Below are positions 1,399-61,815 of a DNA stretch of 64,000 nt, piece by piece (within the stretch, counting starts at the first letter, position 1; every line of letters starts with the position of its first letter). A program made the translations under genes and the position numbers. The DNA is taken from positions 1 through 64,000 of the IMG/VR virus record IMGVR_UViG_3300015374_000002. One strand, 5' to 3'. The DNA comes from a virus (taxonomy: Duplodnaviria > Caudoviricetes). The notes under the pieces were generated by a model. The model worked only from the letters and a program-made list of their open reading frames with translations, did not search any database and had not been told where the DNA came from.

Positions 1399-1501
1399 GG
1401 CGTCTTTCCTCCTGGTGGTGTCGCTCCCACGCAACCCTACATCCATTTAGCGTAAAAGGTTGAGGGGGGGCGGCCAGTCGGCCGCCCCCCCTCTGTTCGA
1501 G

Positions 1502-1957
1502 TCAGACTTCCTGCGTATCCACGGTGAACACGGTCGCCGACGGCCGGAACAAACGATGGATGGGCCCGTACAGGTTGATGACCTCTTCCGGGCGGTGCGG
1601 GGATCCCGCTTCACCCAGTTGGTTGGGGACCAGCACCAGGTACCAGCCGTCCTTGTTGGTGCGCGCCAGCTCGTCCATCGGGCCGTCCACGTCCGGGTAG
1701 TGCGCGGCGGCGAACCACTGCATCCCGTCACGGTCCTGCCAGACGTCGCCGACCTCCGGCATGCCGTCAGCGGGCACCTTCCGGACGATCATGACGTTCT
1801 CGTCGTTGCGGTTGACATACACGAGCGCGCCTCGGTGCGGATCGGCGAAGACGAAGAACTCCGCACTGCCGTCGGGCTGGGATCCCTCCTCCAAGACGGT
1901 GACGTTCTTGAACGTGACGTCCAGCACTTCGCCCTTGAGATACTTCGGATTGTCCAT
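1502..1957 (-). CDS. hypothetical protein
   Basis: ATG at 1957 after AGAGCGACCAACCAGGAGG leader. Confidence 0.75.
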   Translation of the reverse strand: MDNPKYLKGEVLDVTFKNVTVLEEGSQPDGSAEFFVFADPHRGALVYVNRNDENVMIVRKVPADGMPEVGDVWQDRDGMQWFAAAHYPDVDGPMDELARTNKDGWYLVLVPNQLGEAGSPHRPEEVINLYGPIHRLFRPSATVFTVDTQEV

Positions 1958-2029
1958 GGATCCTCCTGGTTGGTCGCTCTTTGCCGACCCTGTCAGCATA
2001 CAGTCATTTAGCGCCATGTGCAATGGTGG

Positions 2030-2185
2030 TCATCGGGTGGACCGCCTGGCGTTCATGCGGTCTTTGATCTGCTGCTGAGTCGGGGGCGTGTAGCGGTGCC
2101 AGCCTGCGGCCGTGGTCCAGCGCTGGCCGTGGTCTCGCTGTTCAAGGCCGCAGTGGGTACAGCCGGACGGGGCGGGGTTCGCCAT
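2030..2185 (-). CDS. small hypothetical protein (CxxC, 51 aa)
   Basis: MANPAPSGCTHCGLEQRDHGQRW...; AAGGAG RBS. Confidence 0.6.
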   Translation of the reverse strand: MANPAPSGCTHCGLEQRDHGQRWTTAAGWHRYTPPTQQQIKDRMNARRSTR

Positions 2186-2267
2186 GTCTCACTCCTTGTT
2201 CGTCGTTCCGTCGGTGGCTTCAGAATGCAGACAGGACCCGGGTGTAGCACCCGGGTCCTGTGTCCTG

Positions 2268-2384
2268 CTACTTCTTGCCCTTGTTCTTGTCCGACTCCGG
2301 CACCCTCAGGGCCTTGCCCATGTCCTTGATGGCCTGACGTCCCCGCTCGGCCTGCTTGGCGGCCTCCGCCTTTTCGTCCTTCAT
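2268..2384 (-). CDS. small charged protein (38 aa)
   Basis: MKDEKAEAAKQAERG...; own promoter motif, GAGCGAC + AGGAG RBS, hairpin downstream. Confidence 0.55.
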   Translation of the reverse strand: MKDEKAEAAKQAERGRQAIKDMGKALRVPESDKNKGKK

Positions 2385-2471
2385 GCTGTGCTCCTGATGT
2401 TGTCGCTCTGCCAACACTTAAAGCATACAGGCATTTAGCGTCAGGCTCAAGGGGCTTCAGAAGCAAGATCC

Positions 2472-2942
2472 CTAGGGGTTCACGATCAGATCCCGCCCAC
2501 GGCCATACCAGCCGCAGTTGCAGAACACCCCCTCCCGGGGATGATCGGGACACCCGTCGCTGTACCGCTTCACGGCGGCCAGCAGTGACGGATGCGCCGT
2601 CTCCACCAGGGCGACGCTGCCCGTGGCCGCCGGATGCCCATTCCACGTCTTCACTACCGGCCGCCCGCGACCGGTCAGCCATTCGGCCAGCTCCTCCAAC
2701 TCGCCCAGCCGCAACGGGTTGGCGGGCCGCCCGCCGGGTCCCGACTCCCGGAGTCGGTCCGGAACGTTGAGCACCACGACCGGGTGGCCGTCCCAGCCGC
2801 GCGGGACGAAGTACAGGATCCGGTCAGGCTCGGCGTCCACCAGGACGCCGTGGTGGGAGATGAGCGCCCCGTCGGGCTGCTCCGTCTCATACAGCCAGCG
2901 CAGGCCGATCTCCAGGGCTGCGCTATGGGGATGGTCGTTCAT
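2472..2942 (-). CDS. hypothetical protein
   Basis: ATG at 2942 with GGAGG RBS and leader motif; C-terminal CPDH..FCNC motif. Confidence 0.7.
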   Translation of the reverse strand: MNDHPHSAALEIGLRWLYETEQPDGALISHHGVLVDAEPDRILYFVPRGWDGHPVVVLNVPDRLRESGPGGRPANPLRLGELEELAEWLTGRGRPVVKTWNGHPAATGSVALVETAHPSLLAAVKRYSDGCPDHPREGVFCNCGWYGRGRDLIVNP

Positions 2943-3107
2943 GATCTCCTCCGGGGCGTCGTCGCTCTGTCGATCCACAAGCATACAGTCATTTAGCGCA
3001 TACGAAAAGGGGGTTGGCGGCATCCACCAAACTTCCCGCCAACCAATCACGCGCCACACGCGTCTCACTCGTTGTTACGTTCCAACACCTCAAAAACTGG
3101 AGCAGCG

Positions 3108-3527
3108 TTGCTCAAGCAACTCCTCGCCGCCACCGTCCTCGCCGGATCCGCCCTGGCCGTCGGCGTCACCCCTGCCCTCGCGCAGACCGCGCCCACCATC
3201 CAGGCCGACGACCACCGGGACCACGACTGGCGAGGCCACGGCCGCGACCACCACCGGCCGTTCCTGCGCTGGATCACCGCCGCCACGCCGCTCGTCCAGC
3301 AGCCCACCTGCCACACCCCCGGCAAGATCGCAGCCCCGTCGGTCCGAGGCGTCCAGTACACCCTCAAGAGCCACTGGCGGCCCATGACCATGACCCCCGG
3401 CACCTGGTACGCCAAGGCGCCCGGCCACTACCAGGTGGAGGCCACCGCCGAACGCGGCTACCTCCTCCAGGGCCAGCGCTCCTGGACCATCGACCTGCGC
3501 CCCCCCCGCTGGTGCCACCACCGCTAA
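3108..3527 (+). CDS. putative secreted protein
   Basis: TTG start after GGAG; signal-peptide-like LKQLLAATVLAGSALAVGVTPALA. Confidence 0.65.
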   Translation: MLKQLLAATVLAGSALAVGVTPALAQTAPTIQADDHRDHDWRGHGRDHHRPFLRWITAATPLVQQPTCHTPGKIAAPSVRGVQYTLKSHWRPMTMTPGTWYAKAPGHYQVEATAERGYLLQGQRSWTIDLRPPRWCHHR

Positions 3528-3539
3528 CCCGTAACGCAC

Positions 3540-3572
3540 AAAGCGCCCGCCCCGGGGAAGGGCGGGCGCTTT
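3540..3572. terminator. bidirectional terminator-like hairpin
   Basis: aaagcgcccgccc / gggcgggcgcttt inverted repeat between convergent genes. Confidence 0.7.
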
Positions 3573-3583
3573 CGCGTGCAGAT

Positions 3584-4297
3584 CTAGTTGCGGATGACGG
3601 TAGCCCTACGAGTCTCCACCGCGATAGACCGCGCCGACCTCGACGGCGAACCGATCCTCTTCTCCGCCTCCGGCGCCGCGCCGGGCCCCAACAGCAGCGC
3701 CAACGCCTTACTGATGTCGCCGCCAGCCTCCCGGGACCGGTCAACCCCATCCACGATCACCTGAAGGCCGCCGATACCCCACTGCTTCCGGACCCGCGCA
3801 TACCCCAGACGCAGGACGCGGGTATCGGTTTCGACGCCGATCACCCAGCGCCCGTTCTCGTCCTCCCCGACCTCAACGGGCAGCTTCCCCGTCCGGGTCA
3901 TCGCCTGGTAGGCCGCCTGGACGATAGACGGCGCATCCTCGATCGGCCGCGCGGGCGGCATCGGCTCGATCACCGGCGGCTTCTCTTCCCCGGCGACGAC
4001 AGGGGCAGGATCCTGCCCGCTGTCCTCCTCCTTGAAGATCCTCACCAGGTCCTCAAAGCCCTGCGCCAGCGGCTGGGGAACCCCGCCGATGGCGAGCGTC
4101 GAACCCTTCCGCCGAACCTTCCCGTTGGCTTTGATGTCGAAGTCAACGGTTACCCGTACACGGTCGCTTTCGGTGGTCATCCGCCACGTACGGACGTCGA
4201 GCCGCTCGATGCGACCGTCATGACCGGTGGCCTCCTTCAGTCTGGCCACCAAGTCTGAGATGACCTTCGGCACGAACGTCTCTGCGGGATTTTCCAT
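3584..4297 (-). CDS. hypothetical protein
   Basis: 237-aa ORF, AGGAGG RBS, leader motif. Confidence 0.8.
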   Translation of the reverse strand: MENPAETFVPKVISDLVARLKEATGHDGRIERLDVRTWRMTTESDRVRVTVDFDIKANGKVRRKGSTLAIGGVPQPLAQGFEDLVRIFKEEDSGQDPAPVVAGEEKPPVIEPMPPARPIEDAPSIVQAAYQAMTRTGKLPVEVGEDENGRWVIGVETDTRVLRLGYARVRKQWGIGGLQVIVDGVDRSREAGGDISKALALLLGPGAAPEAEKRIGSPSRSARSIAVETRRATVIRN

Positions 4298-4439
4298 ACA
4301 CTGCCTCCTGGGGGCTGGGTCGCTCTTCCACCACCACTGTACGGCCGTTTAGCGTGAGCTGGCAGGAAAAAAGGGGCGACCGACTGGCCACCCCTCCCTT
4401 TCGGCGCTACGACCAGCCGGACGTCTTCACTGTCGGTGG

Positions 4440-5132
4440 TCAGGCGATGCGCTGGATGTCGGCGAAGACGACGGTCCCGGCGGCGTCACGGTCGAAGGTG
4501 CGCTCCCCAGAGTGGTGGACGAAGCGGTACGTCCCCGGCGGAACGTCCACGACGTTGTCACTCCAGCCCAGTTTCGCAGGGTCGCCGCCACGGCTCTTCC
4601 AATGCTCGAAGTCCGCGATGGAGTAGGCCCACAGGTCCGTGCAGATAGCCGCCAGCCGGTCGCTGTCCGGCAGCGACGGGTTCTCGTCCTCGTCATATTC
4701 CGGACTGGCGATGACGTACTCGTCCGGCCCTACGCGGTACAGGCCGGGGCAGGAGTTGCCCACTGGCCCGTACGCGCAGCCGACGGCGGCCATCGCCTCG
4801 ATCGCCTGCGCCTGACCCAGGGTCGAGTTGTAACCGGCGAACGTGCGCTCGTCCCAGTCGTAGAAGGGGCGAAGGTCGTCAGTTACGATGATCTTCCCGG
4901 ACGGCACGTCCAGCGTGATCGTCGTAGTGATGCCCTCCGGATAAGGGCACGGGTCCTGCGCATAGACGGCATCCGCGTCGATCCGGAGAGCCGGGCGCTG
5001 GTCGCAGACGGCGCAGTCACGCGCGTCCATAACGATCATCGGCGCCCCTTCGCCGGGCAACCGGAGCACGTCCACATCGCCCGTGTGGGAGATCAGGTGC
5101 CCGTTGGGGTTCAAAGGCAGTGTGTCGATCAT
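4440..5132 (-). CDS. hypothetical protein
   Basis: ATG at 5132 with AGGAGG RBS; promoter TTGTCT-17-TAGTCT upstream. Confidence 0.8.
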   Translation of the reverse strand: MIDTLPLNPNGHLISHTGDVDVLRLPGEGAPMIVMDARDCAVCDQRPALRIDADAVYAQDPCPYPEGITTTITLDVPSGKIIVTDDLRPFYDWDERTFAGYNSTLGQAQAIEAMAAVGCAYGPVGNSCPGLYRVGPDEYVIASPEYDEDENPSLPDSDRLAAICTDLWAYSIADFEHWKSRGGDPAKLGWSDNVVDVPPGTYRFVHHSGERTFDRDAAGTVVFADIQRIA

Positions 5133-5237
5133 CGGTCCTCCTGGTGGTGTCGCTCCATGCCAGACTACAGTCATTTAGCGCCACAGACAAGGGGGGGCGC
5201 TCCTGCTCGCCGACGTCGCCGCACATGCGCTCCAAAC

Positions 5238-5275
5238 AAACAACGCCCGGAGGCTAAGCTCTCCGGGCGTTGTTT
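5238..5275 (-). terminator. intrinsic terminator after major capsid gene
   Basis: 15-bp inverted repeat aaacaacgcccggag/ctccgggcgttgttt just past the stop at 5294. Confidence 0.8.
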
Positions 5276-5293
5276 GCGTTTCCTGGTCGAACC

Positions 5294-7172
5294 TTACGAC
5301 GGCGTGGTAAACGCGCCGACGACGAACGACTCAGGTCGGTCAACTACGAGGCCCAAGCGCTCCTCACATCTGCTCTCTGTTACCTCCCGCATCTGAGTGC
5401 GGGCGGCCAGGTCATTTCTGCCTGGCTCTACGTCTTTTCCATCGACGTAGGTCGGACTGTATCTTCAACTCCAGATCCACCCCGGCTATACCGGCCCGGA
5501 CGGACCTCTTGAAGTTGCCGCACGCACAAGTCTCTACGGACGCCCCGGTACGGGTTGCCTCGGTATTCCCCACGATTTTGGAGGGGTTCACCGATACAGT
5601 GCGGTTTTCACTGACACGTCACCGTGTCAGGCACCCAGATTGAGTGTGATGGCGTTGCGCTCGAACATGTCTCGGTTCTCAGTGCTGCATGTCTGTTACC
5701 TCTCGCCACAACAAGGACGAGTGGCCGGGTCGTTTCCGCCCGGCTCTGCACCTTTTCCATCGATGCAGTTCGGACTGTATCTTCGGCTCCAGTCCCGTCC
5801 GGCTTACACTGGCCGGGCCGGTCCTATCGGAGTCGCCTCGCGCACAAGTCTCTACGGAGTCCCCAGTGCGGGTTCCCTCGGTATTCCCCAGAAGTGGTCT
5901 CTATGCAGTTAGCGGCGGGGTTCACCGATACAGCGAGGTTTTCACTGACACGTCACCGTGTCAGGCGGCCAGCTCATATTCGACCGCGATGTTGATCTGT
6001 TCCCTGTCATACAGTTTGGCGCCGTACCCGAAGGCGCCCAGGAGGTATTGGCCTTCGTTCATGGCCGGGGTGGCGACGACATCCAGCCGCCACATGCGCT
6101 GCTCTGCCCCGATCGCGATGTTCATGACGAGGCGGTAGTGGCCGTCCTCGGTCATTTCGAGTTCGAGGTCTTCCCAGTCGAGCGGGTGGATGACGACGCC
6201 GGACGGGTTGAAGTAGGCGAGGGTCGCCTTGGTGATGGCCCGCCGGATTTGCGCGGTGAGCGGGTCGGCGCTGGATCCGGTGTAGGTCTGAATGCCGGGC
6301 GTGTTGATGATTCCGGTCAGATTGTCGCCGACGCCGTCGCCGTACAAAATCTGTTCGTCTTCGACCATCTTGATGCCGTCGACCAGTTCACGGTCGATAA
6401 GTCCGCGCATTCTCGGCTCGTCCGCCAGCGTCTGCTTGTGGACGTACATGATGTGGGCGATGGTGGCGAGCGGGTACGTGACCGGGGTGAGTGCGAGGTC
6501 GGACTTGGGCTTCAGTCCGTAGACGTCGGTCGGGCCTCCGGTCGCAGGTGAGACGCCGTCTGCAGCGGTGCGTTCGGGGACGACCGCCGCGTTGTTCGTG
6601 TAGCCGGTCTGGCGGATTCCGTAAAGGACGTTCGCGGTCGTGGTTTCCGCCGGGAATAGGTCGCGGACGCGGCCGGGGCGGAGCATTCGGGTGGTCCACC
6701 CGAGGTCTTGGGGGTGGCCCAGGGCGTTGATGTTCGGAATGGTTCCGGCCATCGAGCTGTAAATGTCTTTGCCTTCGAGGCGGCCGTCGAATGATGCGAC
6801 GGCGCCGACCTGGCGGAACCGGGATGCCTTCATTTCCTCCCACTCGTCGGAGTGGAGGAAGCGTTCGGACAGGGACTTGGTGGCCATCATTCCGGCGGCC
6901 TGCTGTGCCTGTTCGGTGGCGGCGGCGGGTGCGTCTCCGGCGGGCTGGTTGAGGAAGTCGAAGGTGCCGCCTGCCTTCTCTTCCAGCGTGATCATCCGCT
7001 GGATCTGTTCGGCTTCGGTGATGGCCTTCTCGTAGGCGGTGGCCTGTTCGGTGGAGATGGTGACGTTGCCGTCTTCGATCTTCCACGAGGTGGCGATGTC
7101 TTCGATCTGGGTGGCTTTGGCCTGAAGGGCGGAGTTCAGCTCCTTCAGGCGGGACTTGTCTACCGTGGGCAT
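5294..7172 (-). CDS. major capsid protein (HK97 fold), spliced: exons 5983-7172, 5643-5687, 5294-5372 (437 aa)
   Basis: HK97-type capsid sequence (..ILYGDGVGDNLTGI..). The missing C-terminus is restored in frame by removing two introns: ..QINIAV|STENRDMFERNAITL|RCEERLGLVVDRPESFVVGAFTTPS*. Confidence 0.92.
5373..5642 (-). ncRNA. group I intron 2 in capsid gene (270 nt)
   Basis: U at 5' splice site, terminal G; GGUG pairs CACU (P1) and AUCUG pairs CAGAU (P10); same R/S core as intron 1. Confidence 0.88.
5688..5982 (-). ncRNA. group I intron 1 in capsid gene (295 nt)
   Basis: Exon ends in U, intron ends in G; IGS GCCGC pairs with exon GCGGU (P1) and GCUG with CAGC (P10); R-like GUAGAGACU and S-like GAAGAUACAGUCCG. 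Confidence 0.88.
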
Positions 7173-7702
7173 GGATGCTCCAGGCGAACGGCGGCACGTC
7201 TCACGCTCGGGGGGGTTCACGTGGCGTTTCCGCTAACCACGGGGTGGTGGCTGCCGTTCGCCCGGTCAGCACCGGGACGACACGATCATGAGGACCGTAG
7301 ACCAGGACAGATGCTAAGGTCGCGGGCTGCGTCGATGAATTTTCAAGATTTCGTGCACGCGCACCTGTACGTAGCGTTACTCGGACACTACTGTGTGACC
7401 TCAGCGCACGACTCAAGGGCGGCGGCCGGGACAATGGGCCGTCGCAAGGGACACGGCGACGTGTCCCCGTGACGGCCAGACCCGGGGCGATCGTCGGGAG
7501 TCGGGGGCCGCGCTGCGAACCGTCATACTCCGGGGGGAGATCCGCCAAGGGGGTGCGGATGGCGGCGTGCAGGGCGGCCCCTCGCGCCTTTCTGCCGGGT
7601 CCGTGCACCGGCGGAGCATGCCCAGGTCGCCGGAGGGCACGTTCGGGGATTGCCTGCGCCACATCCCCCCGAGGGTGTTGTAGGCAATCCCCGTGAAGGG
7701 GC

Positions 7703-9415
7703 TCACAGGCGGCGTGCGGAAGCCTCCGCCAGCGCCCGGTAGCCGCGCGCCAGAAGTGTCGGGTCGATCGTCTTGGTGTCCGGCCGGGCTGATGGGGCGG
7801 TGGAGTCGGATGCCACGATCGGCTCAGAGGGGGCGTCGTCCAGTTCGTCGTCGGCCTGCTTCGGCCGGGCGTCGATCTCCAGTCCGGCCGCCTTCAAAAC
7901 CGCCACCAACGACTCCACCGCGCCGAGCAGGCGGCGTTCGTTGGCCGCCGACAGGACACGGCCCGCCTTGGTCTGCGGCGCGTGTGTCAGCCAGGCTTTC
8001 ACGCCGGAGGTGACGTCCTCGATCTGGGAGGGGAAGGGCAGCATCTTCTCGCCCGTCTCCTCCTGTCCGTCCACCGACACCAGCAGTTCGACCGGTTCCG
8101 GTTCGGCCAGGGCGATCGTCTCCGACGTCGTCTCGCCGCCGACGCTGTAGGGCACCTCGAACGCCTTGGCCGCGCCGTCCTCGGCGTAGACGTTCAGTAC
8201 GGCGTGGTCCGGCCAGGTGCCCATCACCTCTATGTGCACCGCGTTGGCGAAGGTCTTGGCCGCCTCCTGCCGGATCTGCTCGCGCAGCTCTTCGTAGGTG
8301 CCGGGCAGGTGCGGGAACAGGGTGGACTCGATCGTCTCCGCCTGGTCGTCCTTCTTGCCCGCGTGGGAGGTGGCTTTGAGCTTCTCCCATTCGGCGACCG
8401 CCTTGGCGGCCTTCGCCTGGGTGTCGGGGTTGACGCCGTCGCCGCCGCGCGCCCACTTCTTCACCGTGGCGATGGCGATGGGGATGGCCCGGTCCAGCGG
8501 GGTGCCGCGCTTCTCGTGGATGGAGCGGGCGATCTCCCGGATGTAGGCGGGTAGTTCGCCTGCCTTTTCGACCCAGTTCTGCTTGGGGGAGCGGTTCAGG
8601 CTGGCACTGGAACCCTTCCCCTCGGTGCTGCCGTCACCGTCGTTGTCGGCGTCACCGTCGGCTTCCTGGTCTTCTTCTCCCGGTTCCGCCGCCTCATCCT
8701 CTTCGGCGTCTTGGTCGGCTTCTTCCTCATCCGCCTCATCCGGGTCTGCGTCGTCGTCGGGCTGCTCCGGTACGGCCGCCTCGTCCAGCAGTTCGTCGTC
8801 GGGCACTGCTTCCGCTTCGGCGTCCAACTCCGTCAATTCCTCGACGTCCAGCGTCTTGACCGCCAGCGTGGACGACATGCTGTTCGCGCCGAAAAGCACC
8901 GGCGAGTATTCGAAAAGGTCAATCTCCTTGATGCGGCGTACGCCGTCCTTGCCCCGGGTGGACTTGCCCGCCGGGACGCGGTAGCCCACCGACCATTCGC
9001 ACTCCGGGCCGAAGAACTTCACGTTCTGGTAGGCGTCGGAACCTTCCTTGGTGGCGAGGTTGTACTGCGTCTTGACGTAGAGGGCCCCGGCGCCCTGCGG
9101 CCACGCCTGACCGTCCTTCGTCTGAGCAGGTAGACGTGAATCGCCCGGCATCCACTCTTCGATGACCAGCGTCTTACTGGCCCATCGATGCCAATCGTGG
9201 TGAAAGATCCCCTTGGGGGTGCGCGTCTTCAGCGTCTTGGCGTAGGCGCCCGGCTCAATGATGTCGTCGTCATGGTCGCGGACCCCGGTGACGGACACGA
9301 TCGCCTCGACCACGCCGGTGGCGTCGTCGGTGTCCAGCAGGCCGACATCGGGTGCGGTCGCCGCAGCCTTGCGCTCCAGCCCGCCCCGTCGTTGTTCTTC
9401 CGTGGCAGTGGACAC
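7703..9415 (-). CDS. HK97-family prohead (capsid maturation) protease with C-terminal extension
   Basis: DDDIIEPGAY, IFHHDW, WSVGY, IDLFEYSPVLFGAN motifs; directly upstream of capsid gene. Confidence 0.9.
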   Translation of the reverse strand: MSTATEEQRRGGLERKAAATAPDVGLLDTDDATGVVEAIVSVTGVRDHDDDIIEPGAYAKTLKTRTPKGIFHHDWHRWASKTLVIEEWMPGDSRLPAQTKDGQAWPQGAGALYVKTQYNLATKEGSDAYQNVKFFGPECEWSVGYRVPAGKSTRGKDGVRRIKEIDLFEYSPVLFGANSMSSTLAVKTLDVEELTELDAEAEAVPDDELLDEAAVPEQPDDDADPDEADEEEADQDAEEDEAAEPGEEDQEADGDADNDGDGSTEGKGSSASLNRSPKQNWVEKAGELPAYIREIARSIHEKRGTPLDRAIPIAIATVKKWARGGDGVNPDTQAKAAKAVAEWEKLKATSHAGKKDDQAETIESTLFPHLPGTYEELREQIRQEAAKTFANAVHIEVMGTWPDHAVLNVYAEDGAAKAFEVPYSVGGETTSETIALAEPEPVELLVSVDGQEETGEKMLPFPSQIEDVTSGVKAWLTHAPQTKAGRVLSAANERRLLGAVESLVAVLKAAGLEIDARPKQADDELDDAPSEPIVASDSTAPSARPDTKTIDPTLLARGYRALAEASARRL

Positions 9416-9532
9416 GGTTTGCCCCTCCTCGCACGTACGCGGGGGTGGGCGCGCGTGTCTCGGGGCAACGTAAGGGCCGCGACCCGTTTAGGTCGCGCCC
9501 TCCCGCCACGTGGAAGGGCGCGACAGTGGTGG

Positions 9533-9805
9533 TTAGACGCCGGGGTTCTCAGCGTCCAGCCCCTCCAGCCCGGCTACCCGCTCCTCCAGCGCGGTGAAGT
9601 CCACGGCGGGGTGGGCGGCCTTGATGTCGGCGATGTCCTGTCGGATGCCCGCCAGGGCCGCGTCGATGCGGCCTACGAAGGCGTCGAGGTCTTCCTGCTG
9701 CGTCATGATGATGGTCACCTTTCTGTCGATCTCCGTCAGAGTGCACTGTGCCCTGAACAGGAGATACCGGAGGTTCCGCCAGGCCCTGCGGATGAGGTTG
9801 CGCAT
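9533..9805 (-). CDS. small coiled-coil protein
   Basis: ORF in head module; start uncertain. Confidence 0.6.
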   Translation of the reverse strand: MRNLIRRAWRNLRYLLFRAQCTLTEIDRKVTIIMTQQEDLDAFVGRIDAALAGIRQDIADIKAAHPAVDFTALEERVAGLEGLDAENPGV

Positions 9806-9883
9806 CAGGCGGCTCTCTTCCTGGCGCGGTCTACATGGTCACCAGGATGACCCGGAGGGTTCGTTAGGGTCGCGGCCATGACG

Positions 9884-9918
9884 AAAGCCCGCCAGCCGGA
9901 CGGCGTGGCGGGCTTTTT
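9884..9918. terminator. terminator-like hairpin
   Basis: aaagcccgcca ... tggcgggcttt inverted repeat. Confidence 0.6.
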
Positions 9919-9928
9919 GTGGGGATGG

Positions 9929-10363
9929 TCAGTGTTGGGCGAGCCAGTGGGCAACGTCCTGCTTCAGCTCCAGCGGAGCCGCCTGCCAGGACGGCAGTTT
10001 GAGCAGGTTGATCAGGAAGTCGCGCTGCTCGGCCTCTGGGGCAGAGGACAGGCCCACGCCGTCCAGGAGGCTGGCCGTGGTGGTGGCCAGGCGCAGGATG
10101 CCGTCGTCGTAGGCCCAGACGTTCCAGGTGCTCTTGACGGCGTCGGCGACATCGGGTTCGGCCAGGACGTCGCCGGGCGGCGACCAGGTGGGAAGGGTGG
10201 TGGGTGCCGGGACCGCCATGTAAGTGCGGGCGATCATGATGTTGTCGGCGTATTCGCGGATCTCTGCTTCGACGGCGCCGGTGGCGTCGGGCAGGACCTT
10301 GCCGGTGGCGTCGGTGAAGGTGATTTCGGATCGGTCTCCACCGGCGGGGGTGCGCTCGTTCAT
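9929..10363 (-). CDS. hypothetical protein
   Basis: ORF with own promoter TTGCAT-18-TATACT (~10460-10489); start uncertain. Confidence 0.65.
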   Translation of the reverse strand: MNERTPAGGDRSEITFTDATGKVLPDATGAVEAEIREYADNIMIARTYMAVPAPTTLPTWSPPGDVLAEPDVADAVKSTWNVWAYDDGILRLATTTASLLDGVGLSSAPEAEQRDFLINLLKLPSWQAAPLELKQDVAHWLAQH

Positions 10364-10506
10364 TCTGGGGCTCTCGGCTTTCGTGTGCTGGGTTCGGTGG
10401 CTGCGTTGCAGGTGGTGGCCGACAACGTGGTCTCCTGGGATAGACGGGTCACCCACTCAGTATACAGTCATTTAGCGCCACGATGCAAGGGTGGTTTGAG
10501 GACCCG

Positions 10507-13500: not shown

Positions 13501-13731
13501 CCGGACGCGAATGCGACCGGTCGCGGCATCGACGCCCTGGAATGTGCCGCGCGCACCGCCCAGTAGCCGGACCGGGTCACCGGTCTCCACGAACCGGCCA
13601 TGCCGGTCGCGCGGATGCTGGGCGGGCCGCCACTGGGGTCGCCGCACCTTGAAGGTGACCGGGCCGCTGCTCCATGTCTGCGACTGCGGCAACGCCTCGT
13701 AGACGGCGTCGCCGACCCCCCACCGTGACAA
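10507..13731 (-). CDS. head-associated multidomain protein: HPRDxxGRF motif, zincin metallopeptidase, C-terminal ADP-ribosyltransferase-like domain
   Basis: WRPAQHPRDRHGRF; LAHEFGH ... EYG..DPREDFAES; VYRG ... SWST ... HEEEF (R-S-E pattern). Confidence 0.75.
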   Translation of the reverse strand: MSRWGVGDAVYEALPQSQTWSSGPVTFKVRRPQWRPAQHPRDRHGRFVETGDPVRLLGGARGTFQGVDAATGRIRVRVAGERRDRLVQRQHVAFDGKPQPKPQPQPQAAKPPAKPAPARVPLEPSPPSPIVDGPGGVPAAKVDMAASQRNAINDLAIDDPALNYGVNAREGAAALRAKQPLTASQAEALAAVVRARAQSSSTPKAKANSLRKGAEWLDSVVAQLRGFKASAIPTSDKASPIGVETVKGGDVIALPGKGGKADIRTVTEAVPWYGVHKFTMTNANGDTEIRFVGPGTPLYKFHDTGGGLDDALKVDDKTKHVGDEPSALYDDDEAVQVLKDALIAADGEKKADPDIPAAATQQGPGGVPSTVPWFDQLGLTGANTEPIPVTDLTIEGYTVTNGIAWRYKSRSYLVELKPGETAGAAKARGDATAAMLESVLNFAPKDKAALQRGLALLQGANPADSYWAAKYNMPGFHSEATGAFGGTTIWAGQDPKPTTLAHEFGHTVDSQGFGVDQWLSQADGPVVYGQEISWNEAQQRDQLVAGRFAKTFKETSGLNPSAVYNYVKPISLGTNGVTEYGSVDPREDFAESVRLWMKDRREGGLGALSPSGDKVRFSDLFPERAKILDAAMGTTTDFNTALRKKYSKVVEDRFLANMQDVEADDTTDALLPEDLFATAALPRDAVIAAFSRAQLGYADFKKDQEAKKKAKEAAEKFAAEQAAAKAKAEAEVASVTAALENGKLEKADAKKFRLKVTLYKNKLRDQGYSEAEVAQMAAAFETSLMHEHFKLGAFGGLPKVLPDFTSAENATADKWLKQAGKNVHPLAKNQGGVAAQTEANIHAELAARLNNPTDWEKFRASRAHATDVGAFESLSSDARQASLAHEINERVSLWAGTSGDSSPNAVVMQEAVKQEFGLNAPSAPRMSQEDFDKVMAERWPTSGPWYQRVARVMYEHTQEEFKAAGITHVSVYRGMKFFPSASYGKPTPTPEWAPTPEWAKTAGDRPVHLQPVNSWSTNRMTSKGFASGGEHKVMLKASFPVELVLGTARTGFGCLHEEEFVIFDADGDIRVEML

Positions 13732-13820
13732 CCCGATCTCCTAGTCGTATGGGGGGAAGAGTCCCGGCGTGCCGGGGGGCCGAATCGCCGGGAATCTTCG
13801 ATTGCGAGGGGTTGAGAGTG

Positions 13821-14288
13821 TCAGGAGGTAGTGAAGGCGGACGTCTTGGTCGCGGTGCCGCCGGTCGTGGTGACGGCCACGCTGTAGGTCCCGGCGGTCT
13901 TCGCCGGAGACACCGCCGTGATCGTCGTGGGGTTGACGACGACGACGGACGTGGCGGCGGTGCCGCCCACGGCCACCGTGGCGCCGGGCGCGAAATACGT
14001 GCCGGTGACAGTGAAGGCGGTTCCGCCCGCCGCCGCACCGGCGGCCGGGGCCACCGTGGAGATGGTCGGCGTCGCGAACGCGGCGTCCCAGTCCTTCTGC
14101 TTGATGATCTGCCCGGCCCGGAACTTGAGCTGCTTCTTGACGGTCGGGTAATTGACGTGGTCGTAGGCGCTGTCCTCATACACGTTGACCAGCACCTTGA
14201 CGCGCGGCTCCGCTTCAGCCTGCGACTCCAGCACGCCGCCACCCGGAACCTTCGCCAGCGGCGTACCCGCAGCGTTCACCAAGGTCAT
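13821..14288 (-). CDS. IPT/TIG (Ig-like) domain virion protein
   Basis: PTISTVAP..G..AGGT..TVTGTYF ... pattern. Confidence 0.8.
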   Translation of the reverse strand: MTLVNAAGTPLAKVPGGGVLESQAEAEPRVKVLVNVYEDSAYDHVNYPTVKKQLKFRAGQIIKQKDWDAAFATPTISTVAPAAGAAAGGTAFTVTGTYFAPGATVAVGGTAATSVVVVNPTTITAVSPAKTAGTYSVAVTTTGGTATKTSAFTTS

Positions 14289-50589: not shown

Positions 50590-50719
50590 GGTTCTCCTGT
50601 CGGGTCGCTCTCCCGTTGGGTGGTGGGCTGCTGTACAGCGCCGCCCACCAGGCGCTCCCCCGCACGGCCGTGCGGGGGCCGGTCACCCATACTCGATGAC
50701 TTTCAGGTGATTCCGGACG

Positions 50720-51339: not shown

Positions 51340-51507
51340 GGGCGCCTCCTGTGAGACTCCCGAGTCGCTCAACCGGGAGAAGGTGCGGGTGCCGCTTCAC
51401 TACGGCCTAGGCCACGACCGACCGGCTTTCTCCGCAACGCGTACGCTTCGCCGACCAGCCTCCCAAGGGCCAGAGCCCGGGGTAAGGGTTCCCGGGCGCT
51501 CCCGCCG

Positions 51508-53183: not shown

Positions 53184-53219
53184 ATCGTCCTCCTGGTAAA
53201 GGGGTCGCTCTCCCTTTGC

Positions 53220-56124: not shown

Positions 56125-56217
56125 GTGGTGCTCCCAGGGGTCGCTCTTACCCGTTGAAGATTGGCCGCATCATGACACAGGGGTGCGGCGGGCGGTAGCG
56201 AGGCGGTAACGGGGCGT

Positions 56218-57273: not shown

Positions 57274-57570
57274 TCACCCCTTGCCGGACCGGTTCTTCGC
57301 CGCCAGGACGCGAGACAGACCCTGCACGGTGAGCCGGTACCGGCGGCGGGGGAGTATCTCCTCCCCATACTGGTCGATCTCTGTCATCTCCCAGTGGGAG
57401 TTGATCCAGTCGGAGCGTTCCAGCCTGGCCAGATCGGGATACAGGTTGCCCGACCACGACAGGTTCAGCGCGTGGTAGAGGTCGATCCCCGTCATCCCCC
57501 CATCGGGCCCGTTGAACAGGGCGACCAGGATCGCCACCTGTCGCTTGACCCGCCGCTTCCTCCCGAACAT
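57274..57570 (-). CDS. PadR-like winged-helix regulator
   Basis: GNLYPDLARLE..DWI.SHWE ... RRRYRLT..G. Confidence 0.8.
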   Translation of the reverse strand: MFGRKRRVKRQVAILVALFNGPDGGMTGIDLYHALNLSWSGNLYPDLARLERSDWINSHWEMTEIDQYGEEILPRRRYRLTVQGLSRVLAAKNRSGKG

Positions 57571-57935
57571 CACGCGGACTCCTTCAGGGCCTTGTCGTAC
57601 TCGATCAGGGCGGCGGCCAGGGCCGACTGGTGGATGTCGGTGTAGAACGCCTGCCAGGATTCGCCGAACTCGTGTTGGGCCCATGAGCGGACGATATGGA
57701 AGGCGGCCCAGGCGCGCGCCTCCGGGCCGTCCTGGTCGGCGTGGACCTGGCCGCGCCGTTCCTGCATGGCGGCCAGCGCCGGTCCGCCGAGGAGGCGGGC
57801 GCATTCGGTGCAGTTGAGTCCGGCGGGGTGGTTGACGCTGCGGCAGGGCCGCAGCCCCTTCTCATCTTCGGGGTGCGCCGGTGTGGGGTGGCCGCACATG
57901 GTGCAGTGGGTGAACTCCGTGTCCGTGTCGCTCAT
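57570..57935 (-). CDS. hypothetical protein
   Basis: MSDTDTEF...; AGGAGG RBS. Confidence 0.7.
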   Translation of the reverse strand: MSDTDTEFTHCTMCGHPTPAHPEDEKGLRPCRSVNHPAGLNCTECARLLGGPALAAMQERRGQVHADQDGPEARAWAAFHIVRSWAQHEFGESWQAFYTDIHQSALAAALIEYDKALKESA

Positions 57936-57958
57936 ACGGACCTCCTCATGTGTTGGTG

Positions 57959-58695: not shown

Positions 58696-58704
58696 TGGTG
58701 GTCC

Positions 58705-60060
58705 CTAGGAGTTGTGGGGCTGGGCCATATCGACGAATCTGCTGTAGTGGCCCTGGAAGGCGACGGTGATCGTCGTTGTGGGGCCATTGCGGTGTTTCGC
58801 GACAATAAAGTCCGCTTCGCCTGCGCGGGGGCTTTCCTTTGTGTAGGCGTCTTCGCGGTGCAGCAGGAGAACCATGTCCGCATCCTGCTCTATCGATCCG
58901 CTTTCACGTAGATGGACCAATTCAGGGCGTTTGTCGGCTTTCTGCTCCGGGCCCCGGTTCAGCTGCGACATCGCCACCACGGGAATCTCCAGCTCCTTGG
59001 CCAGCAGCTTGATCGACCGGGAGATCTCCGACACCTCATTCTGCCGATTCTCCGACCGGCTGCTGCCCGACGACATCAACTGCATGTAGTCGATGACGAC
59101 GAACCGCAGGTCGTGCCGCTCCTTCAACCGGCGGGCCTTGGCCCGGATCTGCATCATGTTCTGATTGGCGGTGTCGTCGATGAACAGCGGCGCCTCGGTG
59201 ATGGCGGCCATCCGCTTGGCCATGCGGGTCCAGTCGTCTTCGCCGAGTGTGCCGCTTCGGATGCCGTGCAGGACGACGCGCGCCTCGGCGGCCAGCAGGC
59301 GTTGCACGATCTCCAGCCGGGACATTTCCAGGCTGAAGATGGCGGTGGTCAAACCATGCTTGATGGCGGCATTTCGGGCGAAGTCGAGTCCGAGGGTCGA
59401 TTTGCCGATGGCGGGCCTGGCCGCCACGACGATCATCTGCTGTGGGTGGAGTCCCCCGGTGAGCCGGTCCAGATCCTCGAAACCGGTCGGGATGCCGACC
59501 AGCTCGCCGCCCCGGCCGCCCGCCGCCTCGATCTCGTCCAGGGCGCCCGGCATGATGTCGGACAGCGGGGCGTAGTCGTCGCTGGGCCGCAGCCCTGGCA
59601 CCTTGCCCAGCTCCGCCTGGGCCCGCTCCAGAACCGCGTCAGCGCTTTCCCCAGCCGGGTTCCGCGCCCAGCTCTGCACCCGGATCGTTGCTTCCAGCAG
59701 GCGGCGCAGCACCGCCTGCTCACGCACGATCTTGGCGTAGTGGGAGGCGTTGACAGCCGTCGGCGTCACCGCCGTCAGCTCATGCAGATACAGCGGCCCG
59801 CCGACGCGACCCCCTTCCCCGTTGTTCTGCAGCACGCTGTAGACGGTGACGGTGTCGGCCGGTTTGCCCTTGCCGAACAAGTCCACGACCACGTCGTAGA
59901 TCATCTGGTGGGCTGGGCGGTAGAAGTCGTCCGCCTTCACCACCTCCACCACGTCGGAGATGGCGTCGCGGGACATCAGCATGGCGCCCAGCACCGACTG
60001 CTCCGCTTCGATGTTGTGCGGCGGAGGCGTCTCGAAATCCGCCTCCAGCATGTCGGTCAC
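58705..60060 (-). CDS. dnaB: replicative DNA helicase
   Basis: PPHNIEAEQSVLG, AARPAIGKS, IDYMQLM, SQLNR, LRESGSIEQDAD, AKHRNGP. Confidence 0.97.
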   Translation of the reverse strand: MTDMLEADFETPPPHNIEAEQSVLGAMLMSRDAISDVVEVVKADDFYRPAHQMIYDVVVDLFGKGKPADTVTVYSVLQNNGEGGRVGGPLYLHELTAVTPTAVNASHYAKIVREQAVLRRLLEATIRVQSWARNPAGESADAVLERAQAELGKVPGLRPSDDYAPLSDIMPGALDEIEAAGGRGGELVGIPTGFEDLDRLTGGLHPQQMIVVAARPAIGKSTLGLDFARNAAIKHGLTTAIFSLEMSRLEIVQRLLAAEARVVLHGIRSGTLGEDDWTRMAKRMAAITEAPLFIDDTANQNMMQIRAKARRLKERHDLRFVVIDYMQLMSSGSSRSENRQNEVSEISRSIKLLAKELEIPVVAMSQLNRGPEQKADKRPELVHLRESGSIEQDADMVLLLHREDAYTKESPRAGEADFIVAKHRNGPTTTITVAFQGHYSRFVDMAQPHNS

Positions 60061-61115
60061 GCAGCCTCCAGTTTCGGCTTGCCGTCCAGGGACGTCCACA
60101 GGCGGGCGTCCATCATGCCCAGCTCTACGCAGAAGGGGTGCGGGTCAGCCAGTTCACCGGCTTGCCGCCACCGCTCCACCACGTCCAGGATCTGGGCGAT
60201 GCGCTCCTCCTGGCCGGGCTTCGGGCCGTGGGCTTTGCCGCCGTCCCAGGCCAGGCCGAGCGCCTTGCGGGCCCGCCTGATCGTATGGTCCTCGACGGCG
60301 GGCGTCGTCAGGCGCAACTGCTTGGCTATCTCGCCCAGGCTCATGTTGTACTGGACCGCCATCCGGGCCACCTGCATGTGCAGCAGCGCTTCCCGGTCGC
60401 GGCGGGCCCAACGCTCCTCGATCTTCTCGTTGCGGATGTCGCCCTCCCACAGCAGCCCGTCTGGGGCGTAGTCGTCGGGAGTGCGGAACCCGTACCGGCG
60501 GGCCAGGTCCTTGGCGCGGATGTGGTGGATGCCGGTGTAGGGGATCGCGCACATCTGGTCAAAGAAGGCGTTGACGTCGTCAAGCATGTCGCGGGCGACG
60601 CGACGACGATGTCCCGTAACGATCTGGAGGATGGTGGTGTAGCCGTATCCGAGGCGGGAGCCCTGCACGGCGGCGGGCCAGCCATTGGCGCACAGCGAAC
60701 CCAGCTTCCACCTGATGAGACGGGCGGGGACGCTCGTCGTAGATGCCGCGATCAGGTCGTCTTCGGTGATGGCCGCGATGCGGCGTCCGGTACTGACGAG
60801 GACAGAGTCCACCTGCCCGTTGAGGATCTTTTCGAGGCCATGGCGGGACAGTCCAGCTGCGCGAGCCACAGGCTGGTGCACCCACTCTTTGTCGTCGATC
60901 CAGGTCCGCAGGATGGTGCGAAGTTCGGATACGCGGTAGCGGCGCGGAACTCCTTGACGGACCTTCTGCCGACGTTCGGCGTCGGCAAGGCGGATGATCT
61001 CCGAACACGTGGAGGCTCCGGGGCAAGGGTAGGTGGCCCGGCATCCGGCCCGGTAGCCGAGTGCGGTGCCGTGCGGGAAGTCGGGGTCGTTGGGGTCACG
61101 CGGACGTGCGGGCAT
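60057..61115 (-). CDS. multi-HTH hypothetical DNA-binding protein
   Basis: HGT..GY..GC N-terminus; HTH-like VARAAGLSR..L..I..G and LGEIAKQL. Confidence 0.75.
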   Translation of the reverse strand: MPARPRDPNDPDFPHGTALGYRAGCRATYPCPGASTCSEIIRLADAERRQKVRQGVPRRYRVSELRTILRTWIDDKEWVHQPVARAAGLSRHGLEKILNGQVDSVLVSTGRRIAAITEDDLIAASTTSVPARLIRWKLGSLCANGWPAAVQGSRLGYGYTTILQIVTGHRRRVARDMLDDVNAFFDQMCAIPYTGIHHIRAKDLARRYGFRTPDDYAPDGLLWEGDIRNEKIEERWARRDREALLHMQVARMAVQYNMSLGEIAKQLRLTTPAVEDHTIRRARKALGLAWDGGKAHGPKPGQEERIAQILDVVERWRQAGELADPHPFCVELGMMDARLWTSLDGKPKLEAA

Positions 61116-61463
61116 GCAGCATCACTCCTTGAGGGTGGACCCGGTCGCTCACGGGTACACTCATTTAGTATGACCGCTCGTTGCGGAATCTGGCAAGGAC
61201 GTCAGCCTCCATCGCTGCCGCGTTCGCTCTCATGACCTGCACCAACGCTTCACAGATCTCGCGTGCCTGACGCCGGGTGAAGGCGTGGCCTTCCTCGTCT
61301 GAACGGGCGGCGTCCCACCTCTGCACCACCCCCGTAGCGTCCCTGATTTCGACGCTGGGGCGGGTCAGGCGGATGGCGTGCCGGTGGATACGGAAGGGCC
61401 GGGATGGGCGCCACCGGGTGCGTTCCAGGGCCGCAGACAGGGCGTCGTGGAGGTCGTACGGGT

Positions 61464-61724
61464 TCAGGATCGCTCCTCCTCTTCTGCGGTCAGTGGGCCG
61501 GTCGGGTGCGCCTCCGCCGTAGTGGCTTCATCGGAGCAGGCCCAGACGGCGAGCATCGCCGGGAGGGTGGAGTCGTAGGAGTTGACGCCCACCACGTCGC
61601 CGGTGGGACGCAGGCGGCACACGACGGCCAGGGCTGGGGCGTAGAGCAGGTCGGCGAACGCCGCCACCACGATGTCGATGGCGGCGTTCGACGGCATTTC
61701 GGGCATGGGTATAGCAGGGCTCAC
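61464..61724 (-). CDS. hypothetical protein
   Basis: GTG start with GGAG, leader motif and promoter motif. Confidence 0.5.
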   Translation of the reverse strand: MSPAIPMPEMPSNAAIDIVVAAFADLLYAPALAVVCRLRPTGDVVGVNSYDSTLPAMLAVWACSDEATTAEAHPTGPLTAEEEERS

Positions 61725-61815
61725 AGGGGGTCTCCAAAGGTATGCCCGGGTCGCTCTACCGGGCCGGTCGGACCCCTCAATTCTACAATCATTTAGCGGA
61801 TCGGGTGTGGCTTTG

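Follow-up and report, generated by a model that had tools for sequence, protein, structure and literature searches.

Recurrent GAGCGAC elements in the gene leaders of an uncultivated, G+C-rich phage lineage

The closest described counterparts of the element considered here are the start-associated sequences (SASs) of mycobacteriophages, motifs of a kind known since 2011. The element is the heptamer GAGCGAC, which recurs just ahead of gene starts in a linear virus record of 85,789 bp (Duplodnaviria; Caudoviricetes; IMG/VR entry IMGVR_UViG_3300015374_000002; CheckV completeness about 74%), the first 64 kb of which form the stretch of DNA analysed here, hereafter the window. According to the passages on SASs in PMC3203893, those of Cluster K mycobacteriophages are 13-bp sequences, GGGATAGGAGCCC, which contain the Shine-Dalgarno (SD) sequence and lie 3-7 bp from the start codon, membership being defined by that 13-bp sequence with at most two departures, and the same passages contrast them with the L5 stoperators. 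PMC3203893 and PMC12699233 further describe the motif as an asymmetric repeat that is short, keeps one and the same orientation, numbers about 10-20 copies in a genome, lies mostly outside virion structural genes and is conserved across diverged relatives ahead of unrelated genes; in the opinion given there, RNA pairing finds no support in the inverted repeats of the extended SAS. The function of SASs is described as experimentally untested in the corresponding part of the 2025 paper (PMC12699233).

The element of this phage shares with SASs the character of a short asymmetric repeat ahead of mostly non-structural gene starts, and it has the same single orientation and position upstream of starts. 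A location outside the structural module is suggested by the lack of any copy on either strand in 5156-23923, the block of capsid, protease, portal and large terminase genes, in an incomplete record in which six tagged genes that could not be placed in any family lie by the capsid gene. It differs in its core, which is 7 nt long, does not include the SD and ends 14-28 nt ahead of the start codon, as opposed to 13 bp including the SD at 3-7 bp, and in its flanks, which pair and vary from site to site. The SAS consensus is absent from this phage, in which the conserved core is GAGCGAC with weak flanks. An earlier reading of the window made from its letters alone, hereafter the sequence-only reading, had interpreted GAGCGAC as a translational address tag and noted that the start-associated sequences of some mycobacteriophages have a different consensus. 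Owing to the different consensus, the different position and the support for RNA pairing, the element is not filed as an SAS.

Placement and structure of the leader element

GAGCGAC marks a real, strongly non-random and lineage-conserved leader element with RNA-structure support. The window, with a G+C content of 66% and nearly all of its genes on the minus strand, holds 31 copies (26 on the minus strand and five on the plus strand), as compared with a mean of 19.4 and a maximum of 29 in dinucleotide shuffles of the same sequence, none of 100 of which reached 31; the whole record holds 45 (38 and seven, respectively). Among the 125 genes that our own, crude gene caller places in the record, GAGCGAC is the top enriched 7-mer of the upstream positions -45 to -1, where it precedes 27 genes against 1.27 expected (binomial p 1e-27) and outranks every SD 7-mer. 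The composite pattern GAGCGAC-N3-16-GGAG-N4-12-ATG matches 28 times in the record (27 on the minus strand and one on the plus strand, two sites being counted twice), as opposed to no match for the reversed control. These counts bear out the positional and strand enrichment expected by the sequence-only reading, and the 21 sites that it listed, 20 ahead of minus-strand starts and one ahead of the plus-strand TROVE gene, are all real, with a GGAG-type SD and a start codon downstream of each.

Curation by exact match to the 7-mer gave 32 sense-oriented leader sites in the record, 21 of them within the window, plus two variants; 31 lie on the minus strand and one on the plus strand, which also carries a variant, and all read in the sense of their gene (Table 1). 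The base before the motif at the 32 curated sites is A in 21, T in eight, G in three and C in none, and the two bases after it are chiefly C or A. The distance from the end of the motif is 4-15 nt to the SD core and 14-28 nt to the start codon, each in 27 of 28 rule-scored sites, and apart from the SD no column is conserved within 15 nt upstream or 22 nt downstream of the motif. Tags precede 24 of the 67 minus-strand genes with an upstream gap of at least 40 nt and three of the 54 with a smaller one, and both clear plus-strand genes are tagged on their own strand (TROVE at 32533 and, by a GAGCGAA variant hairpin, the gene after 39362). The proposal that the tag is reserved for non-structural genes would suit the absence of any copy from the head block; exclusivity is left doubtful by six consecutive tagged genes at 49-5132, which adjoin the capsid gene and have no family in the PHROG and Pfam scans (101-121 proteins) by which proteins were named, two of them (49-1398 and 3584-4297) having also been queried by tblastn and having returned no phage homologue.

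Most copies lie in the loop, of 6-12 nt, of a small hairpin whose stem sequence varies from site to site, as in GTTGG-A-GAGCGA-CCAAC, GCCCGG-TA-GAGCGAC-CCGGGC, GTGCGGG-AA-…-CCCGCGC, AAAGGG-A-…-CCCTTT, GGGCGT-AT-…-ACGCCC and GCGTCGG-TT-…-CCGACGC. Contiguous flanking stems of at least 4 bp occur at 18 of 28 sites, as compared with 24% of 20,000 random positions (Mann-Whitney p 6e-6) and with 15% of 485 positions at equal offset in motif-less genes (p 1e-7 against motif sites). An alignment of 18 copies with one loop geometry has changes on both sides at all seven stem pairs and 21 further pair types, as against 14.8 +/- 1.7 after shuffling, with none of 500 shuffles reaching 21. Sliding the partners in this alignment lowers pairing from 89% to 36-47%, the 89% being circular because the 18 copies were selected for pairing in that register; what the 18-copy table demonstrates is how varied the stems are. 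For GAGCGA, the predicted probability of being unpaired averages 0.70; the corresponding values are 0.45 for controls at equal offset (p 4e-6), 0.47 when the flanks are shuffled (p 9e-7) and 0.40 for nine occurrences elsewhere.

The covariance model derived from the 18 copies recovers copies outside its seed, at 57920-57942 (27.3 bits), 39353-39375 on the plus strand (20.9 bits, E 0.012) and the sites 29717, 73884 and 4312, along with one probable chance match inside a gene at 78240, and all distinct matches at E <= 0.1 run in the sense of the local gene. Rfam 15 at gathering score returned tRNA matches only, in the window and in the stretches L001, L002, L033 and L020. The hairpin at 57920-57942 has the loop ATGAGCGAC, the ATG of which is the start of gene 57570-57935, and the copy at 57927-57933, whose loop would thus include the start codon, is possibly functional. 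This loop recurs at the Ro site and, longer by one base, at the 34565 site, the ATG not being a start there.

A regular-expression promoter scan of the record gave 27 matches, five of which lack the conserved core and were set aside as chance-like, leaving 22 near-identical copies of ccCTTGACc-N7-GCGCTAAATGnnTGTAnnnT, 14 in the window and eight at 66.8-83.6 kb of the record. They read as predicted sigma-A-type promoters, with a -35 element (TTGACC), an 18-nt spacer that contains a conserved block, GCGCTAAATG, a TG and a TANNNT -10 hexamer; a simple consensus scan for promoters and terminators was uninformative on this G+C-rich DNA. The spacer block may be the binding site of a phage regulator, and it is also found inverted, in the promoters ahead of 32095 and 34565. 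The motif lies downstream of 18 of the 22 promoter copies, at 11-15 nt from the end of the -10 hexamer in 11 of these 18 sites and at 1-26 nt overall. Transcription in actinobacteria generally starts 6-8 nt after the -10 hexamer, so that with a gap of 11-15 nt the hairpin would begin at or beside +1. The motif goes with the reading frame and not with the promoter (the contexts of the untagged promoters are given in Table 1), a pattern that tells against a role at the promoter or in transcription alone and favours one connected with the message to be translated. Action in RNA, as the sequence-only reading had supposed, is favoured by an orientation that follows the gene, the position in leaders predicted to be transcribed, the predicted exposure, the association with SD and reading frame, and the site-specific stems, since a stem that differs between sites yet stays complementary argues for RNA.

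Relatives and tRNA-type contexts

Relatives were sought with a promoter-plus-motif pattern, GCTAAATGNNTGTANNNTN{5,26}GAGCGAC. Scans of IMG/VR with this pattern, with a 19-mer and with the portal protein returned nothing, and megablast of 6 kb against public phage collections gave no match, the record itself being possibly absent from these collections. Five pattern matches in bacterial genome contigs come from bacteria of lower G+C (0.41-0.57) and were taken as chance. The pattern matches 34 metagenome stretches, seven of which are of low G+C and were set aside as chance (L008, L016, L018, L024, L029, L032 and L038) and another seven of which are the same phage (99.97-100% identity) and were not counted as relatives (L012, L014, L015, L021, L025, L034 and L037). 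The remaining 20 distinct G+C-rich loci comprise 64.5 kb with 58 copies of GAGCGAC, 43 of them followed by an SD and a start codon (25 behind the promoter, a figure to which the search pattern itself contributed, and 10 downstream of tRNA-like units), whereas 209 permuted 7-mers gave a mean of 1.3 and a maximum of six such sites in the same loci. Stems of at least 4 bp are present at 24 of the 43 sites, as against 25% of random positions (p 3e-5).

Homologues of proteins of this phage, at 36-83% identity, are encoded by seven or eight of the 20 loci. Ahead of matching genes the core is unchanged and the stems show compensating differences, for example GCGGC/GCCGC here and GCGAC/GTCGC in L013, or GGGTGTTGG/CCGACACCC here and GGGGTGTCG/CGACACCCC in L007. 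L033 carries 15 sense copies in 13 kb with no nucleotide similarity to this phage. The motif is thus kept in diverged metagenomic relatives, and in these and the present phage it stands ahead of the ribosome-binding site of roughly one gene in three. No composite match was obtained in the 477 kb of five named phages whose head genes are related (DalanDe, GMA6, Cantare, ChisanaKitsune and Gilgamesh), GAGCGAC in DalanDe has no strand bias (16 against 10), and a 1.35-Mb Arthrobacter replicon gave one composite match against two for the reversed control. Because the relatives are tagged while the named phages and the Arthrobacter replicon are not, the element is, as judged from these sequence comparisons, a trait of this uncultivated lineage and not general to actinophages or actinobacteria. 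No published description of the motif was found in the literature searches made, the papers listed for the bare 7-mer all being unrelated.

Several copies are associated with tRNAs. The motif lies 4 nt past tRNA-Val and 9 nt past tRNA-Glu, neither of which has an encoded CCA, and 35 nt past tRNA-Lys, in line with the earlier remark that it occurs right after tRNA 3' ends. Eleven copies in L033, L020, L027 and L031, the only relatives in which such mini-elements were seen, sit 6-8 nt past a compact tRNA-like unit identified by a rule-based scan. This unit consists of an acceptor-like stem of 5-7 bp with variable sequence (for example GCCCCG/CGGGGC, GGCTTC/GAAGCC and GCCCTC/GAGGGC), a middle hairpin of 9-19 nt and a T-arm-like 5-bp stem with a YTCRNNN loop, fully paired in six of the 11 and with four of five pairs in the other five, followed by a tail that starts with ACG in nine of the 11. 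ARAGORN and Rfam did not call the units as tRNAs, and MAFFT with RNAalifold gave a poor consensus for the 11 copies. The units may be punctuation signals for RNase P and RNase Z, and the motif would presumably lie near 5' ends made by tRNA-type processing, as it does near predicted transcription starts.

Proposed mechanism and alternatives

The reading that we favour, with a probability of about 0.5, is that GAGCGAC serves as a tag in RNA leaders and that a sequence-specific protein recognises it, thereby governing ribosome access to the messages of the non-head genes or the fate of these messages. The tag would act in cis in the RNA leaders of about 34 protein-coding units, with its core presented single-stranded, most commonly within a loop of 7-10 nt closed by a stem of 4-9 bp that can vary freely in sequence, and otherwise in an A/C-rich, unstructured leader. 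It would usually lie 4-9 nt from the predicted mRNA 5' end (a sigma-A-type start or a cut behind a tRNA or tRNA-like element) and 4-15 nt before the SD. A sequence-specific RNA-binding protein, of the phage or of the host, would dock on the tag at the edge of the 30S binding site, where it could set ribosome access, through activation or timed repression, or shield the 5' end from decay, so that the non-head genes would share one post-transcriptional control. In a large host genome rich in G+C, a DNA operator needs more than a 7-nt core, but such a length is typical of RNA loop recognition. We infer RNA as the active form, the protein reader and its effect alike.

Several observations weigh against this reading. 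The distance from the -10 hexamer to the motif is only 6, 7 and 1 nt at the sites 5155, 1426 and 61150, so that the 5' stem and even part of the motif might escape transcription from the promoter in question. Ten of 28 sites have three or fewer contiguous flanking pairs, in leaders that tend to be A/C-rich and unstructured, and at three of 32 sites the mean unpaired probability is below 0.4, which makes the hairpin frequent and not obligatory. The PHROG and Pfam scans gave no S1, S21, KH or other RNA-binding family, except TROVE, as a candidate reader. Avoidance of GAGCGAC in coding sequence is not significant (five sense copies against 8.1 +/- 2.6 in synonymous-codon shuffles, and three antisense copies against 3.5), and strong harm from stray copies is therefore not evident. 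The short distance between motif and SD could come partly from compact leaders rather than from a need of the ribosome, and, as no RNA sequencing run containing the sequence was found, the 5' ends, promoters and processing sites are all predicted ones.

A further, distinctly tentative step would be a two-part system in a soil actinophage lineage, in which tRNAs and tRNA-like units are cut by host enzymes so as to divide long transcripts into single messages, every message, whether freed by such cuts or begun at a promoter, carrying a 5'-proximal GAGCGAC read by a dedicated phage protein that licenses or times translation. If true, this would be a virus-specific mRNA address system distinct from the Shine-Dalgarno interaction.

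The element might have no direct role in ribosome recruitment. Stem-loops at the 5' terminus stabilise bacterial mRNAs and T4 RegB cleaves early messages at a short motif, and GAGCGAC could be a 5'-end stabiliser against 5'-end-dependent RNases (RNase E, RNase J) or present in its loop an endoribonuclease cut site that shuts messages off. The hairpin is predicted from about +1 at 11 of the 18 promoter-linked sites, copies lie 4-9 nt past tRNA ends and 6-8 nt past tRNA-like ends, where processing would leave a vulnerable 5' monophosphate, and other copies stand behind strong hairpins. A protective hairpin, however, needs no invariant loop, and here the seven letters are invariant in 32 of 32 sites (picked by exact match) while the stems vary and stemless sites keep the motif; cleavage, for its part, would call for a nuclease, no candidate for which emerged from the PHROG and Pfam scans, and sits poorly with a motif that is not avoided in coding sequence. 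Stabilisation or processing is accordingly an unlikely explanation, if by no means a negligible one. Proximity to the promoter at 18 of 22 promoters also recalls a nut/boxB-like antitermination site, at which a small phage protein on the nascent hairpin would let polymerase read through tRNA structures and terminator-like hairpins. The conserved purine-rich loop could take a GNRA-like fold, copies recur past tRNAs, where cleavage would cut the RNA tether, and an arginine-rich protein of 47 amino acids (aa) and pI 12 is encoded at 75088-75231. Antitermination is nevertheless improbable, given that the element is absent at the promoters of tRNA-Val and of the non-coding stretch before Ro and is back before the next frame, that it reaches nearly one copy per gene in places (six genes at 49-5132; 15 copies in 13 kb of L033), that no second conserved linear, boxA-like element adjoins it and that no NusG-like or N-like family was found in the same scans.

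Decidedly improbable is a stoperator-like DNA site, that is, an asymmetric operator at which a phage repressor blocks escaping or elongating RNA polymerase in one orientation. Some 34 intergenic, asymmetric copies that keep one orientation with respect to the genes and that fall, for many promoters, at about positions +5 to +12 would suit such a site, and helix-turn-helix (HTH) and PadR-like regulators are encoded (Pfam and PHROG scans); the core, on the other hand, has 7 bp rather than 13 bp, complementary flanks that are predicted to expose it have no meaning for duplex DNA, the gap separating it from the -10 hexamer ranges between 1 and 26 nt, and the longer conserved spacer element GCGCTAAATG already looks like the protein-binding site of these promoters. 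Recognition by base pairing, whether to 16S rRNA in the manner of a translational enhancer or to a small RNA of the phage, is very improbable, even though the motif is predicted to be exposed and single-stranded, is located at the 5' edge of the 30S footprint and has a 6-nt complement, GTCGCT, at position 1320 of an Arthrobacter 16S rRNA. That position belongs to a conserved part of the head domain, distant from the mRNA exit, chance alone would by our estimate give a 6-mer match in 1.5 kb in roughly one case in three, and no 7-nt complement, G:U pairs allowed, is present in the 16S rRNAs of one Arthrobacter and three cyanobacteria. The full complement GTCGCTC occurs six times on the sense strand of the minus-strand genes (three times in coding sequence, once in the D-arm of tRNA-Tyr and twice in hairpin stems) and is rare in the relatives, with one copy against 15 of the motif in L033, which speaks against the antisense RNA that the sequence-only reading had allowed as a reader. 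Finally, a functionless passenger in a duplicated promoter-leader cassette would account for the near-identical stem GGTGTTGG-A-GAGCGA-CCAAC that accompanies the same promoter at 46412, 75930 and 80789; with 14 of the 32 sites lacking the promoter, many unrelated stems around an invariant core and a core kept in relatives without nucleotide similarity, this explanation is already hard to hold and scarcely credible.

Phage record and comparison with known systems

The window carries the head, replication and other genes listed in Table 1 and, by ARAGORN, 37 tRNA genes within 41.9-55.4 kb; to its right the record encodes SSB, an endolysin, the small terminase and a 7-deazaguanine gene set. The latter, at 80.8-85.8 kb (L002), comprises FolE, QueE, QueD, QueC-like and DpdA/TGT-like proteins, a set for 7-deazaguanine DNA modification, and a ParB-like protein is encoded there as well. 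The leader tag is also present on the gene for the 1661-aa DarB-like methyltransferase-helicase (24712-29697). The closest named phages, Streptomyces phage Gilgamesh, Gordonia phages DalanDe, GMA6 and ChisanaKitsune, and Brevibacterium phage Cantare, share head-module proteins only, at about 40-50% identity (portal or protease). The DnaB protein is 72.7% identical over 97% of its length to that of an 11.85-Mb Nonomuraea gerenzanensis record and about 60% identical to DnaBs on Pseudonocardia and Arthrobacter replicons, a similarity that gives a hint of the host lineage. The DNA sequencing runs that contain the phage sequence are labelled rhizosphere and soil. Metagenome contig L021 (1-3802) is 99.98% identical to the start of the record and reaches 3.8 kb past its left end, an overhang consistent with an incomplete record, and this extension holds one more promoter-plus-motif copy at 488-524.

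Some further features accompany the tRNA and regulatory genes. Five more T-arm-like hairpins with TTCGAAT or TTCGATT loops lie outside the 37 ARAGORN calls, on the minus strand at 48391-48650, 49878, 51532 and 54439; Rfam reports a 120-nt 'tRNA' at 48391-48510, and two of the five are followed by a shared word, GGTGGCGTGGACAGCC. These hairpins are candidates for parts of tRNAs that are unusual or interrupted, or of tRNA-like units. The tRNA-Cys (GCA) called by ARAGORN at 41947-42021 on the minus strand has tRNA-Sec as its best Rfam model (47.8 bits against a threshold of 47). Between a minus-strand HTH_3 (Cro/CI-type) gene and a divergent plus-strand gene of 197 aa, the region 39199-39392 contains a long palindrome, TGTAAAG…TTGAC-TG-TCAA…CTTTACA, and looks like a candidate operator or switch. 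Upstream of the Ro/TROVE gene and behind a canonical promoter, about 400 nt of frameless plus-strand sequence (32131-32532) include two hairpins, one T-arm-like (32377) and one with a perfect stem of 21 bp (32464-32511); the RNA of this stretch is a candidate Y-RNA-like partner of Ro, and 32100-32570 has no match in Rfam at E <= 1.

Table 1. GAGCGAC copies, promoters, tRNA-like units and named genes. Positions are those of the record unless a locus is given; promoter coordinates are those at which AAATG starts.
Feature	Position	Strand	Context
GAGCGAC leader	1420-1426	-	start 1398; weak stem GTGG/CCAC; 7 nt past -10 hexamer
GAGCGAC leader	1973-1979	-	start 1957; imperfect stem; promoter upstream
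GAGCGAC leader	2402-2408	-	start 2384; loop of GTGTTG/CAACAT hairpin; promoter upstream
GAGCGAC leader	2961-2967	-	start 2942; promoter upstream
GAGCGAC leader	4319-4325	-	start 4297; variant promoter GCTAAACGGCCGTACAGT upstream
GAGCGAC leader	5149-5155	-	start 5132; no good stem; 6 nt past -10, predicted RNA would start at motif
GAGCGAC leader	23924-23930	-	start 23900, first gene of clamp-containing unit; promoter upstream
GAGCGAC leader	29724-29730	-	TTG start 29697 of 1661-aa DarB-like gene; promoter upstream
GAGCGAC leader	32089-32095	-	GTG start 32067; loop of CGGG/CCCG hairpin
GAGCGAC leader	32533-32539	+	TROVE/Ro start 32564; loop of GGGCGT/ACGCCC hairpin; behind 21-bp hairpin 32464-32511
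GAGCGAC leader	34559-34565	-	start 34538; loop of CCTG/CAGG hairpin
Variant GAGCGGC	36414-36420	-	start 36390; loop of long GGTGGTGTCG/CGACACCACC hairpin
Variant GAGCGAA	39362-39368	+	gene 39392-39985; loop of CCCGG/CCGGG hairpin; 20.9 bits, E 0.012
GAGCGAC leader	43244-43250	-	start 43224; 4 nt past tRNA-Val 3' end (43255); no stem
GAGCGAC leader	44652-44658	-	start 44634; loop of GGTGG/CCACC hairpin; 9 nt past tRNA-Glu 3' end (44668)
GAGCGAC leader	45428-45434	-	GTG start 45408 (HAD_SAK_2 RNA-repair-type protein); loop of GTGCGGG/CCCGCGC hairpin; 35 nt past tRNA-Lys
GAGCGAC leader	46406-46412	-	start 46385; loop of GTTGG/CCAAC hairpin; promoter upstream, hairpin predicted from about +1
GAGCGAC leader	50604-50610	-	start 50589; loop of CGGG/CCCG hairpin; behind two strong hairpins
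GAGCGAC leader	51364-51370	-	start 51339; loop of CTCCCGG/TCGGGAG hairpin
GAGCGAC leader	53204-53210	-	start 53183; loop of AAAGGG/CCCTTT hairpin
GAGCGAC leader	56140-56146	-	start 56124
GAGCGAC leader	61144-61150	-	start 61115, unit running into DnaB; loop of ACCCG/CGGGT; 5' stem overlaps predicted -10
GAGCGAC leader	61750-61756	-	GTG start 61724; loop of GCCCGG/CCGGGC; promoter upstream; top covariance-model score, 31 bits
GAGCGAC directly after ATG 57935	57927-57933	-	perfect 6-bp GTCCGT/ACGGAC hairpin 57920-57942, start codon in loop; 27.3 bits, outside seed
GAGCGAC between SD and ATG 30944	30946-30952	-	anti-sigma-like HATPase gene; status ambiguous
Sense GAGCGAC	44141-44147	-	between tRNA-Met and tRNA-Trp, in small ATCG/CGAT hairpin; neither SD nor frame follows
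Example promoter	about 46425-46454	-	TTGACC, spacer GCGCTAAATG, TG, TANNNT
Promoter AAATG starts	61794, 61166, 46439, 43358, 29765, 23967, 10473, 5176, 2994, 2436, 2009, 1448	-	
Promoter AAATG starts	32131, 36451	+	
Untagged promoter	43358	-	runs directly into tRNA-Val; motif 4 nt after tRNA, ahead of next frame (43250)
Untagged promoter	32131	+	followed by about 400 nt non-coding, T-arm-like hairpin 32377, 21-bp hairpin, motif hairpin 32533, Ro gene
Untagged promoter	36451	+	no evident frame downstream
Untagged promoter	10473	-	within head block
tRNA-like units	L033 10153-11435, 2410-2478; L020 873-941, 2172-2240, 3223-3291; L027 1787-1855; L031 1112-1180, 1866-1934		between small genes
Major capsid protein	5961-7172		PHROG/Pfam
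Maturation protease	7703-9415		PHROG/Pfam
Portal	15307-17691		PHROG/Pfam
Large terminase	18427-20154		PHROG/Pfam
Sliding clamp	22136-23314		PHROG/Pfam
DarB-like protein, 1661 aa	24712-29697		PHROG/Pfam
TROVE/Ro protein	32564-34249	+	PHROG/Pfam
Nudix hydrolase	38048-38470		PHROG/Pfam
dCTP deaminase	39975-40622		PHROG/Pfam
DnaB	58705-60060		PHROG/Pfam

The reading of GAGCGAC as a protein-read RNA leader tag invites comparison with translational operators, which include the sites of T4 RegA, one protein acting on many messages, the hairpins of the MS2 and PP7 coat proteins and the E. coli thrS operator, the MS2 and thrS signals each serving a single message. The likeness consists in a specific RNA signal beside the ribosome-binding site, or a hairpin whose loop is sequence-specific and whose stem is free to vary, which here lies 4-15 nt before the SD and is predicted to be exposed; the loop sequence, in contrast, is unrelated, and the element lies upstream of the SD and not over the start codon, except possibly at 57927-57933. 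The boxB/nut sites of phage lambda are hairpins close to the 5' end of early transcripts; their loop is conserved and rich in purines, and a small basic protein recognises them in the nascent RNA. The element here is likewise a small hairpin with a purine-rich loop near the 5' end, but lambdoid phages have two such sites each as against about 34 copies here, their loops are GNRA-like and of 5 nt as against 6-12 nt, and the element has no boxA partner and goes with frames rather than promoters. The stoperators of L5 and Cluster A phages are 13-bp asymmetric duplex sites bound by repressor, which the element resembles in its many asymmetric intergenic copies with a single orientation to transcription; it departs from them in having seven invariant positions and stems that are complementary at each site and differ between sites.

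For start-associated motifs in general, the element offers a cleaner handle, with a short invariant core apart from the SD, a variable complementary stem, a link to the reading frame, and conservation in relatives with which this phage has no further nucleotide sequence in common. A dedicated reader, if real, would mean that a virus labels its own messages in a new manner, and the tag could serve as a portable expression tag for G+C-rich actinobacteria. Mitochondrial transcripts are punctuated by tRNAs, and tRNA-like 3' elements are processed by RNase P and RNase Z. Tagged leaders here often start 4-9 nt past a tRNA or 6-8 nt past an acceptor-stem and T-arm unit, and by analogy the tRNA-processing enzymes would be able to cut a long transcript into single messages; the differences are that processing is here a prediction and that the mini-elements occur in the relatives only. 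The tRNA-like units of these relatives may thus represent a bacterial-virus counterpart of tRNA punctuation.

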